From the NCBI GenBank assembly GCA_034226945.1, contig CP120463.1:868001-932000 (forward strand): a DNA stretch of 64,000 nucleotides. Direction: 5' to 3'. Positions 6,598-14,577 of this stretch are shown in pieces. Each line of letters begins with the position of its first letter. Position 1 is the stretch's first letter. The DNA comes from Picochlorum sp. SENEW3. Its lineage: Eukaryota. The position numbers and the translations under genes were made by a program. Under the pieces are notes generated by a model, which saw only the letters and a list, made by a program, of their open reading frames with translations, made no database searches and had not been told where the DNA came from.

Positions 6598-7461
6598 ATG
6601 ACTGTACTGTCAGAGTATGAGCAAGCTCGTCAGGTGCGAAGCCTCATCGTTCTCGTGGCACGATTCAACAACAATCATTCCTTTGGGTTGGCCTAGTCCC
6701 CGATCATCGTTTTATATGCTTTGCAGAGGAGAATAGAGGAAAACAAGGCTAGGATGGGTAGTTTGGGTCTGGTAGAGGCTGTACAAGACACGCTGAAAAG
6801 TGCCCAGCCAACCAAGAAGAGGAGGCAAAACAGGCTGAGTTCGACAAAAAGCAAGCAGGACAAGGGCGAGCCGGTGAGGAGGCGTTCCAAGCGAGTTGCA
6901 GGAGAGTCGGCGCCAGAATTGTACGAGCCAGGTGTTCAGGTTAGACCGGTGGAGGAGGTGGAGGAGTATGGTATTGAGCATGTGAGGGCTCTGGGGCGGT
7001 CCACAGGACCATGGGAGCTCTTTGTGGATGGGTACGACGCGCACGGAAATAGAGTCTACGACAAAGCTGCAGGAATGACGTGCCATCAGTGCAGACAGAA
7101 GACACTGGGGAAGAGGACATCGTGCAGTAGTTGTGCATCCCTTCAGGGGGTTTTCTGTGGAGACTGTCTGTACATGAGATATGGAGAAAACATTGATGAA
7201 CTGCCCAAAGAGGGGTGGGTATGTCCCCCGTGTAGAGACTTGTGCAACTGCTCTTTTCATAGATCTCGCCGAGGATGGTGCCCAACTGGCTCGCTGTATC
7301 GAAAGGCGCAAGCTGAGGGATACCCTAGTGTGGCCCACTACCTGGTGTTGCAGAATTTGAAGGATTGTGAAGAGACACGAACATGTGCTAGGGAGATGTG
7401 GGGAAGTCTGGTCAACAGTAGTGATACGAGTACAACAACTGAAATGCGAAATGCGGTGTAA
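6598..7461 (+). CDS. zf-4CXXC_R1 zinc-finger protein (CDCA7-like)
   Basis: Exon 1 6598-6633 (MTVLSEYEQARQ), intron 6634-6726, exon 2 RRIEENKARM...TCHQCRQKT...CSSC...FCGDCLYMRYGE...WVCPPCRDLCNCSFHR. Confidence 0.85.
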
Positions 7462-7644
7462 ATATGTGCTGATGCGATAGTTGACCAGAGATGTGTGCCC
7501 TGGATCTCCTGCCACATCTTGACAACATGCGATTTGTCCCAGATCAAAAAAAAAAAAAAAATCATTGTAACAATGTAACAACTCTCCTTAAAAAAAATTG
7601 CTATGAAGAGCATCATACTTTGCTGAGAAACTCTTTTCTCGCAA

Positions 7645-8408
7645 ATGAGATGCCCAGTGTGCAGGACACAGACAGTGATGGTTCCTCAATGCAGGCACCA
7701 GAGGACTCAGCCATGTCTTGGCTGATGGATGAGGACGAGGATGGAGAAGACACAGCCTCGATTGGCGAGGCCAGCAGCAGCCAGCCACAGATCCCGTTGT
7801 GGCAACGTGTAGGCAGATTTTTACATCGAGTGCTCGGCAAGCACTTTCAGAACATTCGTGATAAGGTGACCCAGCGCAGAGGGTCACCCCCGGTCCGTCC
7901 CAGAGCCAATGCACCGTTTAGTGTAAGGCAGTTCTTTGCTGAAAGGACCACCGCCCCCAGGCTCGGGGCTGTTCACTCCCATGTCGCCGAGGCGGCAGAA
8001 CAGCTCGGAGACAGCGGGGTCTGGTCTGGACGGCCCAGAACAACCAGTCGACGCCAAGGGGTTGGGTGATCCCATCCCGAGGTGTGGGAGTGAGTTTTTA
8101 GTGAGTGCAATCCTCACATGCCTGGAATGGTATCTGGACACCCAGCTGGCGGCCACTGCTCTGTCTCCTGACAGGCACGGGCCACCAGGAAGGAACCACT
8201 TGCAACGTGGGCGCTTCTCATTGACACCCCAAGCTTCCTCAGTCGCACAGGCAGCCGGGTTCCCTCACGAGGAGGCCGCCCACGCAAGCAGCAACTTTGT
8301 GTCGGCCCAGATTTTCTCACTCTCTTGCTTCTTCAGCACACCAAGGGGCGGTCGGATCCGCTGTTCCAGGGCCTTGGCGTGCAGAAAACACGGCTCAAAA
8401 AAAAAAAA
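7645..8408 (+). mobile_element. Non-LTR retrotransposon copy 1, 5'-truncated (752 bp plus poly(A))
   Basis: Near-identical to 12248-12999; ends ...acacggctc followed by poly(A). Confidence 0.95.
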
Positions 8409-8424
8409 TAAAAAAAATCTTTTC

Positions 8425-9473
8425 TCACCAAGTTCTTCGACGACCACCAGCTGCAACGTCGAAGTGACACTGTGTGGACAGCGTGCCTTGGAGGTCTCTC
8501 CACCACTGACGCTGAAATTCTTCAGAAATTTCAGCAAATGTGGGTGGGCACGCCGTTCCCACAGCCAGCCAGGGGGACAGCCCCCCACGTGGAAGGGACT
8601 CCCTCCCAGCCAGCCAGGGAGTCCCACAGGTATGACTTACGATCTACGTCTTCTACTGACCATACTAACAATTTATCTACTCACGTGCGAGGGACGAGCC
8701 CTCCAGATGAGATGCCCAGTGTGCAGGACACAGACAGTGATGGTTCCTCAATGCAGGCACCAGAGGACTCAGCCATGTCTTGGCTGATGGATGAGGACGA
8801 GGATGGAGAAGACACAGCCTCGATTGGCGAGGCCAGCAGCAGCCAGCCACAGATCCCGTTGTGGCAACGTGTAGGCAGATTTTTACATCGAGTGCTCGGC
8901 AAGCACTTTCAGAACATTCGTGATAAGGTGACCCAGCGCAGAGGGTCACCCCCGGTCCGTCCCAGAGCCAATGCACCGTTTAGTGTAAGGCAGTTCTTTG
9001 CTGAAAGGACCACCGCCCCCAGGCTCGGGGCTGTTCACTCCCATGTCGCCGAGGCGGCAGAACAGCTCGGAGACAGCGGGGTCTGGTCTGGACGGCCCAG
9101 AACAACCAGTCGACGCCAAGGGGTTGGGTGATCCCATCCCGAGGTGTGGGAGTGAGTTTTTAGTGAGTGCAATCCTCACATGCCTGGAATGGTATCTGGA
9201 CACCCAGCTGGCGGCCACTGCTCTGTCTCCTGACAGACACGGGCCACCAGGAAGGAACCACTTGCATCGTGGGCGCTTCTCATTGACACCCCAAGCTTCC
9301 TCAGTCGCACAGGCAGCCGGGTTCCCTCACGAGGAGGCCGCCCACGCAAGCAGCAACTTTGTGTCGGCCCAGATTTTCTCACTCTCTTGCTTCTTCAGCA
9401 CACCAAGGGGCGGTCGGATCCGCTGTTCCAGGGCCTTGGCGTGCAGAAAACACGGCTCAAAAAAAAAAAAAAA
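8425..9473 (+). mobile_element. Non-LTR retrotransposon copy 2, 5'-truncated (1034 bp plus poly(A))
   Basis: Near-identical to 11966-12999; same 3' end and poly(A). Confidence 0.95.
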
Positions 9474-9479
9474 CAACGG

Positions 9480-10002
9480 ACCCCCGGTCCGTCCCAGAGC
9501 CAATGCACCGTTTAGTGTAAGGCAGTTCTTTGCTGAAAGGACCACCGCCCCCAGGCTCGGGGCTGTTCACTCCCATGTCGCCGAGGCGGCAGAACAGCTC
9601 GGAGACAGCGGGGTCTGGTCTGGAAGGCCCAGAACAACCAGTCGACGCCAAGGGGTTGGGTGATCCCATCCCGAGGTGTGGGAGTGAGTTTTTAGTGAGT
9701 GCAATCCTCACATGCCTGGAATGGTATCTGGACACCCAGCTGGCGGCCACTGCTCTGTCTCCTGACAGGCACGGGCCACCAGGAAGGAACCACTTGCAAC
9801 GTGGGCGCTTCTCATTGACACCCCAAGCTTCCTCAGTCGCACAGGCAGCCGGGTTCCCTCACGAGGAGGCCGCCCACGCAAGCAGCAACTTTGTGTCGGC
9901 CCAGATTTTCTCACTCTCTTGCTTCTTCAGCACACCAAGGGGCGGTCGGATCCGCTGTTCCAGGGCCTTGGCGTGCAGAAAACACGGCTCAAAAAAAAAA
10001 AA
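9480..10002 (+). mobile_element. Non-LTR retrotransposon copy 3, 5'-truncated (511 bp plus poly(A))
   Basis: Near-identical to 12489-12999; same 3' end and poly(A). Confidence 0.95.
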
Positions 10003-10006
10003 CAAA

Positions 10007-12672
10007 GATGCCATTATAGCCAGCTCGCCACGGATCCAGACAGTCAATCGCTACAATGGTGGGCCGACCACCAGCCCATGGAACAGCAGCCGCCGATTGA
10101 AGCCTTGAATGAAGACATTACATGGGAGGAATTGAATGGTGTCCTGCACCAGCTCAAAACCAGTAAGTGTCCTGGCATGGATGGTCTCCCTAACGAATTC
10201 CTTCGCTTGTGTCGTGTAGATTTGACCTCCAGCTCCCCAGAATCGGCGATGGGCACGGTTTTGCTGCGGACGTGCAACTCGGTATTCTCGGGCAACATCT
10301 CTGATGCCCTGAATACCAGTCTCGTCGTCTCCCTGCCCAAGCCAAACAAGGATTTCACCTACTTGAGCAACAGGAGAGGTATCAGCTTAATCTCCTGCGT
10401 GCTCAAGTTGGTCACGAAAATTGTCGCAAACAGATTCCAACAACATGCAGTCCCAGGCACGGGAGGCCTGCGCAAGGAGCAAGCAGGCTTCCGCCTGCGG
10501 GAAGAGTGCAACGCACAGGCCGCCACCCTCATAGAAATTGCAGGTAGACGGGGTGCAGAAGCGAAGCCGACATATGTCGCCTTCATGGACCTCCAGAAAG
10601 CCTTTGACATGGTCCCACACAATGGCATGCTTCACATCCTCAGAGCCAAAGGAGTCTCAGGTAAGTGCTGGTCTTTCATTCAACGCCTGTATACCAACGG
10701 TACCTTCCGCGTTCTAGTGGGTCCCACAACCTCAGACCTGGCCCCACTAGAACGCGGGGTGCGGCAGGGGGACAGCTTGTCTCCCCTGCTGTTCAACTAT
10801 GTCATGGATTCTTGCCTTGACAATCTGTCAGGAGTTACTGTCCCTGGAATGTCCCAGCGCATTCCAGGGCTCCTCCTGGCAGATGACGCTGTTATTCTTG
10901 CCAATACAGACACGGAGATGAGGGATAATCTGGCAGCCTTTGGGGAGTGGGCGACGTCGTGGCACATGAAGATTGGCCACGACAAATGCGGACTCATGGT
11001 CTTGCACGATCAGCCTGCACACAGCAAAGCCAAAGATTCAGTCTGGCGTACACAAGGGAGTGTTATTCCAGTTGTGGATCAGTATACATACCTGGGACTC
11101 ACCATCGACACAGAGGTATCCACAGCTACCATGGCAGAAGCCAGGGCAGTCACCGGGGCCAAAACGCTCAGCCACTTGGCCCCGTTCCTGGCACACTCCT
11201 CCATCCCAGTGGCGATGAAGAAGATGGTGATCAATGGTATCCTCCTCCCTCAGCTGTGCTATGGTGCAGAAGTCTGGGCAGACAAGCAGTGCAACATTCC
11301 TCCAGTACAGCGCATCCTGAACAATGCTCTCCGCTTGACCACAGTCGGCAGAATGAAGAACAAGCGAGCCATCAGCACCCACATCGTTCACGAGGAACTG
11401 GACATAGCAAATATCAGCGCTATTGCTACGTCCCAAAGGGTACGTGCATGGATCAAATGGCGTCACCTCCATACTTGGATTGCAGATTTCGTCAGAGACC
11501 GCAGCTTCTCTCGGCTCAGCTGGACCCAGCCCTCCAGCAGGATTTTCAGCAAACAGATGGCACGCTTGGGACTCTCGTCTGCAGATGTTGAAGACCTACA
11601 GCCAAAGACGGTGGCTAAGCAAGTGAAAGAGGCATTGAGCAGAGAATACCGGTCCACCAGCACGGCAGCCGCTGGGGGACACTACTTTGCCAACAATATG
11701 CAGAACACGAAGACATACCTGAAGACTAGCACACATCGGGCCACCCCTGTGGACATGCATCGACTTCTTAGGACCAGACTGAACGCGTGGCCAGGCCTGC
11801 TCTACAGATTGTCCAAATGGCACGAAGTATGCCTCTTGCCAGGCTTTGAATGTGTGTGCCCCTCGTGTGACAGCGCCCCGAGGGATGACCTCCACCACAT
11901 TGGCATGGTGTGTCCAGCATTTCAGGAACAGCGAGAAGCCATTCTCAGACCAGCGATAGACGCCATCACCAAGTTCTTCGACGACCACCAGCTGCAACGT
12001 CGAAGTGACACTGTGTGGACAGCGTGCCTTGGAGGTCTCTCCACCACTGACGCTGAAATTCTTCAGAAATTTCAGCAAATGTGGGTGGGCACGCCGTTCC
12101 CACAGCCAGCCAGGGGGACAGCCCCCCACGTGGAAGGGACTCCCTCCCAGCCAGCCAGGGAGTCCCACAGGTATGACTTACGATCTACGTCTTCTACTGA
12201 CCATACTAACAATTTATCTACTCACGTGCGAGGGACGAGCCCTCCAGATGAGATGCCCAGTGTGCAGGACACAGACAGTGATGGTTCCTCAATGCAGGCA
12301 CCAGAGGACTCAGCCATGTCTTGGCTGATGGATGAGGACGAGGATGGAGAAGACACAGCCTCGATTGGCGAGGCCAGCAGCAGCCAGCCACAGATCCCGC
12401 TGTGGCAACGTGTAGGCAGATTTTTACATCGAGTGCTCGGCAAGCACTTTCAGAACATTCGTGATAAGGTGACCCAGCGCAGAGGGTCACCCCCGGTCCG
12501 TCCCAGAGCCAATGCACCGTTTAGTGTAAGGCAGTTCTTTGCTGAAAGGACCACCGCCCCCAGGCTCGGGGCTGTTCACTCCCATGTCGCCGAGGCGGCA
12601 GAACAGCTCGGAGACAGCGGGGTCTGGTCTGGACGGCCCAGAACAACCAGTCGACGCCAAGGGGTTGGGTGA
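10007..12672 (+). CDS. LINE-type reverse transcriptase, N-terminally truncated (RTE/RTEX/L1-like; clade not resolved)
   Basis: KCPGMDG, NRRGISL, EQAGFR, AFMDLQKAFDMVPH, GVRQGDSLSPLLF, LLADD, YTYLG; C-terminal CPSC-x8-H-x4-C zinc knuckle. Confidence 0.9.
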
Positions 12673-13018
12673 TCCCATCCCGAGGTGTGGGAGTGAGTTT
12701 TTAGTGAGTGCAATCCTCACATGCCTGGAATGGTATCTGGACACCCAGCTGGCGGCCACTGCTCTGTCTCCTGACAGGCACGGGCCACCAGGAAGGAACC
12801 ACTTGCATCGTGGGCGCTTCTCATTGACACCCCAAGCTTCCTCAGTCGCACAGGCAGCCGGGTTCCCTCACGAGGAGGCCGCCCACGCAAGCAGCAACTT
12901 TGTGTCGGCCCAGATTTTCTCACTCTCTTGCTTCTTCAGCACACCAAGGGGCGGTCGGATCCGCTGTTCCAGGGCCTTGGCGTGCAGAAAACACGGCTCA
13001 AAAAAAAAAAAAAAAAAA
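10007..13018 (+). mobile_element. Non-LTR retrotransposon copy 4 (about 3 kb, 5'-truncated: RT, CCHC finger, 3' UTR, poly(A))
   Basis: Carries the RT reading frame to the stop at 12672, about 330 bp of 3' UTR and A19; no endonuclease domain upstream, consistent with 5' truncation. Confidence 0.95.
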
Positions 13019-13088
13019 CAAATTAGGTTTTGCGGATAGACTTAGAGCAAAAATTCATTCACGGTATCCCATGTCTCAATCCTGGAAT

Positions 13089-13188
13089 AGCCGGAGGTCG
13101 CCAGTTCGAATCTGGCGGATGGCATCTTCCGTCACAAACAGAGTTAGTGCCATCCTAGCTTAGCCTTGGTTAGAGCGTCGGTTTCATA
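13089..13188 (+). tRNA. Circularly permuted tRNA-Met(CAU): 3' half 13089-13124, 24-nt spacer, 5' half 13149-13188
   Basis: Joined 5'+3' halves give GCCATCC TA GCTT AGCCTTGGTTA GAGC G TCGGT TTCATA|A GCCGG AGGTC GCCAG TTCGAAT CTGGC GGATGGC A: perfect 7-bp acceptor stem, perfect T arm; T6 Pol III terminator at about 13213. Confidence 0.9.
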
Positions 13189-13485
13189 ACAATCAAATGA
13201 CATGTGAGACTCTTTTTTCGTCTGTTTGCCCGTTTCAAAGTATGCAAGCTTCTTTTGGACCAAGTCTACATAGTAAGAAGCGTCTGATGTGGTCACCATG
13301 GATGGGCCGCATTCAACATGGTTGAATTAGGATTAGGAATATGTTCGAAATGTACTATATTTTTGATCGAAACTTTGGATAGAGCGTGGGTTTCATTACA
13401 GACATGAAATGTGATACAGGGCCCTGGACGGTATTTCATGCATTGTACCATCACACATACTTTATTTGTTACATACATCTATATG

Positions 13486-14577
13486 TCATGACACCCGTCG
13501 TCTGCACCACAGAAGGATCCTTTGTTGTACAAACACGAGGAAAGAAAGGACATATCGCAATCCCATTGAGATGGAGGAAAGCAGGGCACAACATGCGTCC
13601 CACCAAACCCAAGGCCATTCTTGGGCGAACAAGAATCGGAAGCCGAAATTAATCATTCGCCTGGTTCTCTTGCCGTGTGGAAACAAGATGTCCAGCACTG
13701 AAAATGCCAACTTGTTCACCTTCCTGGATGCATACCGAGGTCCCCCAGGTTGCGTGAGTGAGTAGATGGTTCCCTGTAAACGAATCCTAGTCGAAGTCCG
13801 GAGCATACCTATGAACTTTCCCACCAATTTCAGCCTGTATAGGTATTGCATACAAGCTTGATCTGCCCTGATGTCTTTAGCAAGGGCATCAACAATTCTA
13901 GCAATCACGAAATCAATCAAATCTTCTCCTCCTTTTTCATTCAACTCGTCCAAAATTCTACTAAATTCGACATCTTCCTGGACGTAATAAGGCATGAAGG
14001 ACACCGATAGACCTGTGAGGTTCTCCTCTACATGCTCATGTGTCAAAACCATCCGCAGAATAAAAGTATACAGAGGCTCAAATGCCATGGATGACGTCTC
14101 CACATCTCCCAGAAAGAGCTGTCGAGCGCCAGATGTTAGAATATTCAAGTGTTTCAGTCGTTCATCAGCCCCCCCTGCATCTGGATGAACCAGTAACCAC
14201 TGATGAAGGAGCAGGGCAAATATTGGAGCTGTGAATGGCTGCCCCCACAGTTTCTTGCATACCGATAATAATTCGTCCCCAGTCGATGGATGGCTCGAGA
14301 AGAATGGTGCCAATACCTCGTACCACCTCGTGTTGGCATCAGACTGGCCGGTGCTTTCGCGAGCAGCTGCATTCAACGTCCCAGTGATATCTGCAAAGAC
14401 CTCGCTGCATACGATATCCCTATCCTCTTTTTGCTCTGCCTGTGTGGCCAGTCCTAGTTTGCGTATAATTTCTTTAGATAAAACTGTTTTTATTTTACAA
14501 TCTGCAGTGCTGTCATCGTTATTGATTTCCCTCTGTTTCCTCTTCGCTGAGGAAGACGGAGAAAACAGGCGTCGCAT
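13486..14577 (-). CDS. Uncharacterised protein
   Basis: 363-aa ORF with globular composition and a hydrophobic C-terminus; no motif I can name. Confidence 0.65.
   Translation of the reverse strand: MRRLFSPSSSAKRKQREINNDDSTADCKIKTVLSKEIIRKLGLATQAEQKEDRDIVCSEVFADITGTLNAAARESTGQSDANTRWYEVLAPFFSSHPSTGDELLSVCKKLWGQPFTAPIFALLLHQWLLVHPDAGGADERLKHLNILTSGARQLFLGDVETSSMAFEPLYTFILRMVLTHEHVEENLTGLSVSFMPYYVQEDVEFSRILDELNEKGGEDLIDFVIARIVDALAKDIRADQACMQYLYRLKLVGKFIGMLRTSTRIRLQGTIYSLTQPGGPRYASRKVNKLAFSVLDILFPHGKRTRRMINFGFRFLFAQEWPWVWWDACCALLSSISMGLRYVLSFLVFVQQRILLWCRRRVS

Follow-up and report, generated by a model that had tools for sequence, protein, structure and literature searches.

A LINE array upstream of a permuted tRNA-Met gene in Picochlorum: a candidate case of tRNA-gene-directed integration in a green alga

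Targeting of tRNA genes is a textbook case of mobile-element survival in gene-dense genomes. In the present study, we have analysed a stretch of 64,000 nt (the window) from the green alga Picochlorum sp. SENEW3, contig CP120463.1, in which four copies of one long interspersed nuclear element (LINE), i.e., a retrotransposon without long terminal repeats (non-LTR), stand in an array upstream of a tRNA-Met gene with permuted halves. Judged from the sequences of this and other loci, it is probable that integration of the element is directed at RNA polymerase III (Pol III) or tRNA genes, convergently with the TRE elements of Dictyostelium and in the opposite orientation.

Targeting of tRNA genes has arisen repeatedly in compact genomes (PMC5006619; PMC5911963, Table 1), and the non-LTR elements with this property that are listed in Table 1 of the latter review come only from dictyostelids. 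TRE5-A, TRE5-B and TRE5-C of Dictyostelium discoideum are similar to the Picochlorum element in being non-LTR elements with an APE endonuclease, a reverse transcriptase and a zinc-finger-like motif, often 5'-truncated, in a compact and gene-dense host (PMC5911963, PMC3159450). TRE5 uses a narrow window upstream of tRNA genes (40-54 bp) in a fixed orientation (PMC5911963), and the Picochlorum element apparently does likewise (60-71 nt). TRE5 elements, however, have their 5' end toward the tRNA gene, whereas the 3' end of the Picochlorum element faces the gene, so that the opposite strand is nicked first; they also have two open reading frames (ORFs), of which the ORF1 protein binds TFIIIB (PMC5911963), whereas the Picochlorum element has a single ORF. 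Furthermore, the target gene is permuted in the present case and the host is green-algal, not amoebal. Because of the opposite orientation and the single ORF of 1486 amino acids (aa) in a sister element, this comparison of features argues for an origin independent of the TRE elements of Dictyostelia.

Set distances from tRNA genes are also kept by NLTR-B of Polysphondylium pallidum (39-64 bp upstream) and TRE3 of D. discoideum (40-150 bp downstream; PMC5911963, Table 1), which differ from the Picochlorum element in their amoebozoan lineages and ORF layout and, for TRE3, in the location downstream of the gene; NLTR-A is found 2-6 bp upstream of tRNA genes (PMC5911963). Ty3 and Ty1 of budding yeast are likewise aimed at Pol III genes, via TFIIIB and via Pol III subunits, respectively, but they are LTR elements with an integrase and insert 1-4 bp from the start site or within a window of ~1 kb (PMC5911963). 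Among green algae, Zepp and Zepp-like L1 elements of Coccomyxa, Chlorella and Chlamydomonas have been described to form arrays of 3' ends by insertion into existing copies, with one cluster per chromosome at the presumed centromeres (PMC8226300, PMC3446292). The Picochlorum array resembles these in being a green-algal LINE array composed mostly of 3' ends and richer in GC than its host. By description it is set apart from Zepp, which is nested, present once per chromosome and centromeric or telomeric, since its copies follow one another in tandem without interruption and occupy a short spacer next to a tRNA gene; unlike Zepp, the other loci of the Picochlorum element also appear to have a common position relative to a tRNA gene.

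The Tx1-type group is known for sequence-specific insertion, and Kojima and Fujiwara in 2004 are said to have placed sequence-specific LINEs of this group in multicopy RNA genes, e.g., Dewa in tRNA arrays. The Picochlorum element is similar to them in being an APE element of L1/Tx1 type and in a precise, oriented insertion linked to small-RNA genes, and Tx1-named proteins are found among its relatives. Tx1-group elements, however, recognise a DNA sequence inside a repeated gene, whereas the Picochlorum insertions lie outside the gene and their flanks differ between loci. A DNA sequence common to every insertion site, as in Tx1-type elements, was not found among ten flanks, which are unrelated, or at the window locus, which has two nick contexts.

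The array, the order of its insertions and the permuted gene

At 7632-13023 the window contains four head-to-tail copies of the LINE, all on the + strand, 5'-truncated at different points, each with its own poly(A) tail and with mutual identities above 99.6% (Table 1). The insertion point (13018|13019) is 71 nt before the 3' half of the permuted tRNA-Met gene, which is the sole tRNA gene found in the 64 kb. The 3'-end motif of the LINE occurs four times in the window against 0.01 times expected by chance, and searches of the 64 kb by blastn, and by tblastn with four relatives, gave no further fragments of the element. The GC content of the array is 54-58%, compared with ~48% for host DNA, and the array occupies a former spacer of ~650 bp between two convergent ORFs.

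Table 1. Features of the LINE array and its surroundings (positions in the window)
Feature	Position	Strand	Remarks
A16 tract	7546..7561	+	85 bp left of the array, 84 nt past the stop of the upstream ORF (6697-7461)
Left 15-bp target-site duplication of copy 1	7632..7646		TCTTTTCTCGCAAAT
LINE copy 1	7647..8417	+	body 7647-8396, ~750 bp (752 with 2-nt AT microhomology), 3' end of the element; tail A12TA8
Right duplicate of copy 1 target site, first 9 nt	8418..8426		TCTTTTCTC, directly after tail 1
LINE copy 2	8427..9473	+	body 8427-9458, 1032-1034 bp (1034 with TC microhomology); tail A15
Junction after tail 2	9474..9479		CAA (= target) + CGG (3 unexplained letters)
LINE copy 3	9480..10002	+	body 9480-9990, 511 bp; tail A12
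Junction after tail 3	10003..10006		CAAA (= target)
LINE copy 4	10007..13018	+	body 10007-12999, 2993 bp; tail A19
Reverse-transcriptase domain, copy 4	10336..11106	+	RVT_1, E 5e-28
Single-nucleotide polymorphism (SNP)	12400		C, copy 4 only
SNP	12634		A, copy 3 only
SNP	12778		A, copy 2 only
SNP	12808		T in copies 2 and 4, A in copies 1 and 3
Rest of right target-site duplication	13019..13023		CAAAT; thrice-used bottom-strand nick just left
A/T-rich stretch	13049..13059	+	CAAAAATTCAT, 31-41 nt before tRNA 3' half
tRNA-Met(CAT) 3' half	13090..13124	+	B-box match at 13097-13112
Intervening sequence between tRNA halves	13125..13148	+	24 nt
tRNA-Met(CAT) 5' half	13149..13189	+	includes A box
T6 run	13213..13218	+	likely Pol III terminator

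The left flank of the array ends ...ACTCTTTTCTCGCAAAT, and the letters after tail 4 are CAAATTAGG. The 15-nt target, which has a single occurrence in the 64 kb, is intact left of copy 1 and its right duplicate is split into the first 9 nt after tail 1, copies 2-4 and CAAAT, with one G lost. Because copies 2-4 split its 15-bp duplication, copy 1 was inserted first. The array consists of four separate insertion events, of which copy 1 is the oldest and founding one. The bottom-strand nick of copy 1 was 81 nt from the tRNA gene, so that the founding insertion was already placed at this short distance when there was no older copy that it could have homed to. Copies 2-4 are located inside the right duplicate of copy 1 and all three nicks are directly before CAAAT; in this process, copy 2 lost 1 nt, and copies 3 and 4 duplicated 3 and 4 nt, respectively. 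At 10003..10006, where read-derived contigs have a loose end, the element's own sequence differs from the CAAA of the junction. Within their overlap the copies differ at four positions only. The preliminary description of this DNA, which had been made from the letters alone, had read the locus in the same way: same-orientation copies with different truncations and separate tails, junction letters repeating the target with three nicks at one position and one ~10 nt upstream, and SNPs that assort independently. All of this has been borne out by the coordinates, including the alternation of 12808 along the array and the private SNPs of copies 2, 3 and 4. Its preference for separate insertions over a segmental duplication also holds, on account of the truncation points, the tails, the target-derived letters and the alternating SNPs.

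For copies 2-4, a left-to-right and a right-to-left order yield an identical final sequence, and tail lengths and SNPs do not decide between them. In the former order each new copy would be placed on the tRNA side, and in the latter each would be placed beside the tail of copy 1; we infer a left-to-right order. All copies that stand to the left of copy 2 or of copy 4 are shorter than these. In four public sequencing runs, 12808 is more often A and 12400 more often T, and because 12808 alternates between A and T in the array and A is commoner in the runs, at least two source variants have contributed. The inserted copies derive from elsewhere. Local re-insertion from read-through transcripts of the array has been rejected for copies 2 and 4 because they are longer than the leftward copies, and its fit to the SNPs is poor. 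A nick inside an older poly(A)/poly(T) tract has also been rejected, since there is a C between every later tail and the sequence beyond it. The order of the array rests on the assembly and on four unique junctions, the contigs of the four runs being broken at the poly(A) tracts; these contigs yielded neither 3' flanks nor an empty allele of the site.

The neighbouring gene (13090-13189) is a permuted elongator tRNA-Met(CAT), in which the half with tRNA positions 39-73 (3' half) stands before that with positions 1-38 (5' half). When the halves were rejoined by coordinate, ARAGORN reported tRNA-Met(CAT); in the native 64 kb, ARAGORN and Rfam at gathering thresholds found no tRNA. A scan of the window for permuted tRNAs (T-arm, acceptor, spacer) gave four raw hits, of which the tRNA-Met gene is the one credible hit. 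In addition, the permuted tRNA-like part of the Rfam bacterial Y-RNA-like model, with T-arm, acceptor and D-arm in this order, aligns across the locus with an E value of 0.03, below the gathering score. The T-loop is TTCGAAT, which marks an elongator tRNA (PMC3978253), and the B box in Table 1 was assigned with the consensus given in PMC3159450. The predicted fold of 13060-13226 contains a cloverleaf, and the leader (13070-13075) pairs with the trailer (13199-13204), with a z-score of -1.15 that is not significant alone. Thus, the earlier statement that the array lies ~70 bp upstream of a permuted tRNA-Met gene is correct in both its distance and the nature of the gene.

TATA-like elements occur within 50 bp upstream of permuted tRNA genes, and an upstream TATA-like element together with TFIIIB has been argued to drive their promoters (PMC3978253). 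The A/T-rich stretch at 13049-13059 is possibly such a TATA-like Pol III promoter element; the insertion point is ~30 nt before it and 78 nt before the B-box match at 13097. Permuted tRNA genes have been reported for prasinophytes and, in 2025, for Auxenochlorella (PMC12636532), and we found no published report for Picochlorum in a literature search that was thin in subscription journals. Since ARAGORN and Rfam miss the permuted gene and the Picochlorum genome paper describes tRNA annotation by tRNAscan-SE only (PMC11092101), the tRNA set of this alga may be incomplete.

Flanks of other copies read from proteins

The 327-nt 3' untranslated region (UTR) of the LINE (12673-12999) is open in two further frames, and spurious ORFs have therefore been called in other sequences through the tail into the flanking DNA. 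We have used such ORFs of others, which continue from the LINE 3' UTR over the tail, translated as a run of lysines, into the flank, and back-translated the flanks from the peptides. Word-index searches, cluster look-ups and an exhaustive profile search together provided 10 distinct flanks (Table 2). The exhaustive profile search gave four hits and no new locus: P0154 and P0156 were already known, P0158 has the flank of P0157, and P0159 is a repetitive protein that is unrelated. Among the 10 loci, the translated flanks have no resemblance to one another.

Table 2. Flanks after the LINE tail and their scores for a permuted tRNA
Flank	Length (nt)	Score	T-stem start (nt)	Spacer (nt)	Shuffles	Real segments
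P0150	33					
P0151	63					
P0153	72					
P0154	147	17.8	78		6/1500	6/230 (segments twice as long)
P0155	51					
P0156	102	-2.52	no T-stem		393/1500	
P0157 (identical flank in P0158, P0164)	330	20.72	221	58	15/1500	0/230
P0161	312	22.97	72	10	0/1500	0/230
P0163	18					
P0165	33					

Four of the 10 flanks were testable, i.e., at least 100 nt long and thus able to reach a T-arm ~80 nt away. Each was given a log-odds score over the peptide-fixed bases, to which the T-loop (TTCRANY), five pairs of the T-stem, seven pairs of the acceptor bridging a spacer of 3-60 nt, and the A box contribute; shuffles (n = 1500) and 230 real 312-nt ORF segments of the window served as controls, and Table 2 gives the numbers of them that reached the score. 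Simple compatibility tests had been far too permissive, with ~3.7 T-arm sites by chance in 423 aa and a pass for 914 of 5000 shuffles, and the log-odds score was used instead. The stricter log-odds model is blind to the tRNA-Met of the window, the own-frame peptide of which stops before the A box, and a looser model recovers this gene in place with a score of 24.5.

The back-translation of P0161 is consistent with a complete permuted tRNA, in which the anticodon-stem 3' strand at nt 62 and a variable loop ARGTN are followed by a T-arm (CCNWS, a TTCGATT-compatible loop, YTNGG). All seven acceptor pairs, all four D-stem pairs and all five anticodon-stem pairs are compatible, and the anticodon loop YTNACNC would contain U33 and a Val anticodon. 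In P0154, a T-arm (GGNGG, a TTCGATT-compatible loop, CCNCC) starts close to the place expected from the window (nt 78, compared with 81); this T-arm alone was matched in 43 of 5000 shuffles, and in only 5 of 5000 when a location within 5 nt of the expected place was required as well. The best-scoring solution for P0154 has a 15-nt spacer. With a 24-nt spacer, as in the window, a stretch compatible with TGGCGCAGTGGT (A box) is found 56 nt past the T-stem start, and the corresponding distance in the window is also 56 nt. The P0157 peptide ends before the anticodon.

Measured from the end of the tail, the tRNA 3' half would start at 62 nt in P0161, 68 nt in P0154 and 211 nt in P0157, and it starts at 71 nt in the window. 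In all three candidates the putative tRNA is on the LINE strand with the T-arm first. The tRNAs differ, being Met in the window, Val in P0161 and one with another T-stem and D-arm in P0154, and since the flanks are unrelated as well, these should be independent loci with a common position and not a common sequence. As read from proteins, the geometry of the window thus appears to recur at two further loci. The proposal of the preliminary description that the LINE is a tRNA-targeted retrotransposon has therefore gained support: permuted tRNAs are indicated at 62 and 68 nt in two of the four testable flanks, within unrelated and peptide-derived sequence.

The downstream peptide of P0161 is also present in P0160, where a few residues differ and nine ordinary residues stand in place of the LINE and its tail. 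P0160 is located on a 982574-base contig and P0161 on a 1499-base contig; judged from these translations, they look like an unoccupied and a filled site in related strains or haplotypes. As a further observation on the junctions, the first non-A letter after the poly(A) is C or C-compatible at most of them (9474, 10003 and 13019; flanks P0153, P0154, P0156 and P0157), and the window junctions and P0161 are compatible with a C followed by AAA. From the C after the tails one may suspect that the nick is preferably made directly behind a G of the primed strand. Searches with exact 3'-end patterns gave no match in metagenome, genome and viral contigs, and protein-guided scans gave none in genome and viral contigs. 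In a protein-guided scan of metagenomes, at least 80 loci were found, and the 80 listed are distant relatives with at most 40% identity.

The element and its family

The open frame of copy 4 comprises 889 codons and runs to the stop at 12670-12672, which is followed by the 3' UTR. Its protein is 100% identical, over 51% of its length, to the NCBI protein LINE-1 ORF2, partial, of Picochlorum sp. SENEW3, which agrees with the green-algal host proposed earlier from the letters alone. The endonuclease part is missing from copy 4 owing to the 5' truncation; near-identical longer copies and relatives have both APE and reverse transcriptase, which is shown to be the architecture of the relatives. P0145, a near relative of 1163 aa, is found on two other contigs of Picochlorum sp. 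SENEW3, and P0003, a product of 1104 aa from a Picochlorum transcriptome, is 92% identical to copy 4 and has APE and reverse transcriptase. P0121 represents a sister family with 70% identity, in which a complete single ORF of 1486 aa is contained in contigs of ~4.6 kb. Among solved structures, human LINE-1 ORF2p is the nearest by sequence. The named protein relatives include Tx1-type elements, and no named protein from Coccomyxa, Chlorella or Chlamydomonas is among the 120 matches listed.

On this basis, the element is best read as an active single-ORF non-LTR retrotransposon of Picochlorum with a probable full length of ~4.6 kb. The predicted domain order is an N-terminal region, the APE endonuclease, the reverse transcriptase, a CCHC motif and a long C-terminal tail. 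In the C-terminal 250 residues (~11920-12669), the CCHC motif is followed by an acidic low-complexity stretch and then by a conserved end. This end, PLWQRV...RPRANAPFSVRQ...SRRQGVG, is common to relatives at 49-70% identity and has no Pfam match; together with the N-terminal 190 residues, it is a candidate for the parts responsible for targeting. The predicted fold of the N-terminal 200 residues had a mean predicted local distance difference test score (pLDDT) of 45, which is too poor for a structure search.

In contigs of the four runs, the 3' part of the element has about ten times the word depth of its 5' part. For example, in run X1 the depth, which is no copy number, is ~39 near 10004-10900, 108 near 12056-12283 and 240-480 at 12512-12967, with 16-21 in the flank at 13196-13400. 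This gradient fits the presence of many 5'-truncated copies. Longer copies elsewhere are indicated by a loose end before 10007 in X1 and X8, and read-derived contigs contain other 5' junctions with non-LINE flanks. Because the ORF of copy 4 is open, longer copies exist and the 3' depth is high, the LINE family is young and multi-copy. X5 and X8, which are salt-lake and marine metagenomes, have the LINE at 95-99% identity (10004-13400) with many shared variant letters, and the right flank of the array is almost without cover in them; this indicates that related populations carry the family at other sites.

Probable directed integration, its alternatives and minor features of the locus

In the explanation that we prefer, the LINE would integrate by target-primed reverse transcription into a narrow window ~60-70 nt upstream of a permuted tRNA gene, toward which its 3' end would always point. 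The protein of the element would be tethered by the complex on the tRNA gene, either TFIIIB at the upstream TATA-like region or TFIIIC at the B box, the first of the two boxes in a permuted gene, and the tethered endonuclease would nick the strand serving as the tRNA template. Each insertion at a constant distance from the gene would push the older copies upstream, and a head-to-tail array of 5'-truncated copies would result. At the present locus, copy 1 came first, 81 nt out, followed by three insertions of at least two source variants at one nick 71 nt out. We infer the Pol III tether, and with it the factor that is read, as well as a safe-harbour benefit.

Several points weigh against this explanation. 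The window is one locus and cannot alone decide tRNA targeting, and arrays of 3' ends in head-to-tail order are also a hallmark of the green-algal Zepp-like LINEs (PMC8226300). With a pure tether one would expect a looser placement than three nicks at exactly one nucleotide, and a local sequence preference must therefore be added to any tether, and a reverse order of copies 2-4 would mean a constant left-hand context and not a constant distance from the gene. Among the testable flanks, P0156 (102 nt) has no permuted-tRNA signature and the candidate of P0157 is three times farther out; thus, targeting is non-uniform or some of the hits are false. The score of P0154 was matched by real control segments, its acceptor has one definite mismatch in the reading with a 24-nt spacer, and a weaker reading of its flank as a tRNA in canonical order exists. 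Six of the 10 flanks are too short for the tRNA test, the peptides leave a third of the flank bases free, and the informative ORFs come from the sister family and from other assemblies than this genome. Near the 80 distant metagenome relatives listed, ARAGORN found no tRNA (0/80), and for permuted tRNAs there were three weak raw hits in 325 kb, none of them credible.

The main rival, which we regard as improbable, is that the element is self-targeting in the manner of Zepp, homing to its own copies or to centromeric chromatin, and that its tRNA neighbour is a coincidence. An array in one orientation, mostly of 3' ends and rich in GC, matches the descriptions of Zepp clusters (PMC8226300, PMC3446292); in run X17, at a loose end at 11885, another poly(A) is directly joined to a 5'-truncated copy; and LINEs amounting to 1.25% of the genome together with 12 Hi-C centromeres (PMC11092101) are compatible with one cluster per chromosome. 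However, the founding copy had no older copy as a target and is still 81 nt from the tRNA gene, the later insertions entered the target duplication of copy 1 and not a copy, and the C after every later tail places the nick outside the old poly(T). The array is tandem and not nested, with all four copies uninterrupted to their 3' ends, and it sits in a short spacer flanked by genes. Two other loci at a similar distance from other tRNA genes are unpredicted by homing, and the sister element has a single ORF on a 4.6-kb contig, whereas Zepp-type L1 elements have been described with an ORF1 (PMC5203782). A local hot spot, at which the endonuclease prefers this DNA sequence or structure (a nick before CAAAT) independently of Pol III, is rated slightly lower. 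It would account for three of the four nicks at the same nucleotide and for the C-compatible letter after the tail in most flanks, and it would suit the Tx1-type elements among the named relatives. The nick of copy 1, however, is 10 nt away in an unlike sequence, the 15-nt target is unique in the 64 kb, and a family with 3' ends many times more abundant than single-copy DNA could not be maintained by one unique site; moreover, the flanks of the other loci are unrelated in sequence while the distance to a tRNA is kept.

Two further possibilities concern the history of the array. Copies 2-4 might have come from one round of reverse transcription with template switches, or from capture of multiple cDNAs at one break, so that the site was hit twice; such a complex event is unlikely, a shade more so than the hot spot. 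Their back-to-back arrangement and their target duplications of minus 1, 3 and 4 nt, compared with 15 nt for copy 1, would suit it, but the target CAAAT is repeated in the letters that follow tail 2 (CAA) and tail 3 (CAAA), a repetition that template switching does not predict, and SNP states alternate between neighbouring copies. It also concerns only the number of events here and leaves the geometry of the other loci unexplained. An assembly artefact or a segmental duplication of one copy is very improbable: the array is repetitive and the read-derived contigs do not bridge the poly(A) junctions, but the four copies have their own truncation points, tails, unique junctions and copy-specific SNPs, and a duplication would have copied the boundaries.

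With directed integration as the preferred explanation, we are inclined, at little better than even confidence, to see in the element a tRNA-gene-targeting non-LTR retrotransposon that is the first of its kind in the green lineage and the first beyond the social amoebae, and which would have evolved independently (single ORF, opposite orientation) and would read the reversed promoter layout of permuted genes ~80 nt from the first-placed B box. We found no report of a tRNA-targeting non-LTR element in green algae in the literature searched, which was thin in subscription journals. If directed integration is true, this green-algal case with opposite orientation would be a further independent origin of tRNA-gene targeting, and permuted tRNA genes would still assemble a Pol III complex that the element can read. 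The element would then report the positions of Pol III factors on permuted genes, bearing on their transcription mode, which is described as unsettled (PMC3978253), and natural neutral or safe-harbour landing sites would be marked in Picochlorum, an alga used in biotechnology.

The surroundings of the array have some minor features. The A16 tract left of it is the sole A run of 12 or more in the 64 kb besides the four LINE tails, and T runs of this length are absent; it could be the tail of an older retro-insertion, and a flanking duplication around it, e.g., from a retrocopy of the upstream gene, was looked for and not found. A weak match to the U6atac model at 13535-13652 (13.5 bits, E 0.91, gathering score 33) is most likely due to chance. 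At 13376-13412, ~210 bp downstream from the tRNA gene, there is a degenerate look-alike of its 5' half, which extends from the D-loop to the trailer with ~35 of 40 letters and no acceptor stem, and which may be a relic of a half-gene duplication.

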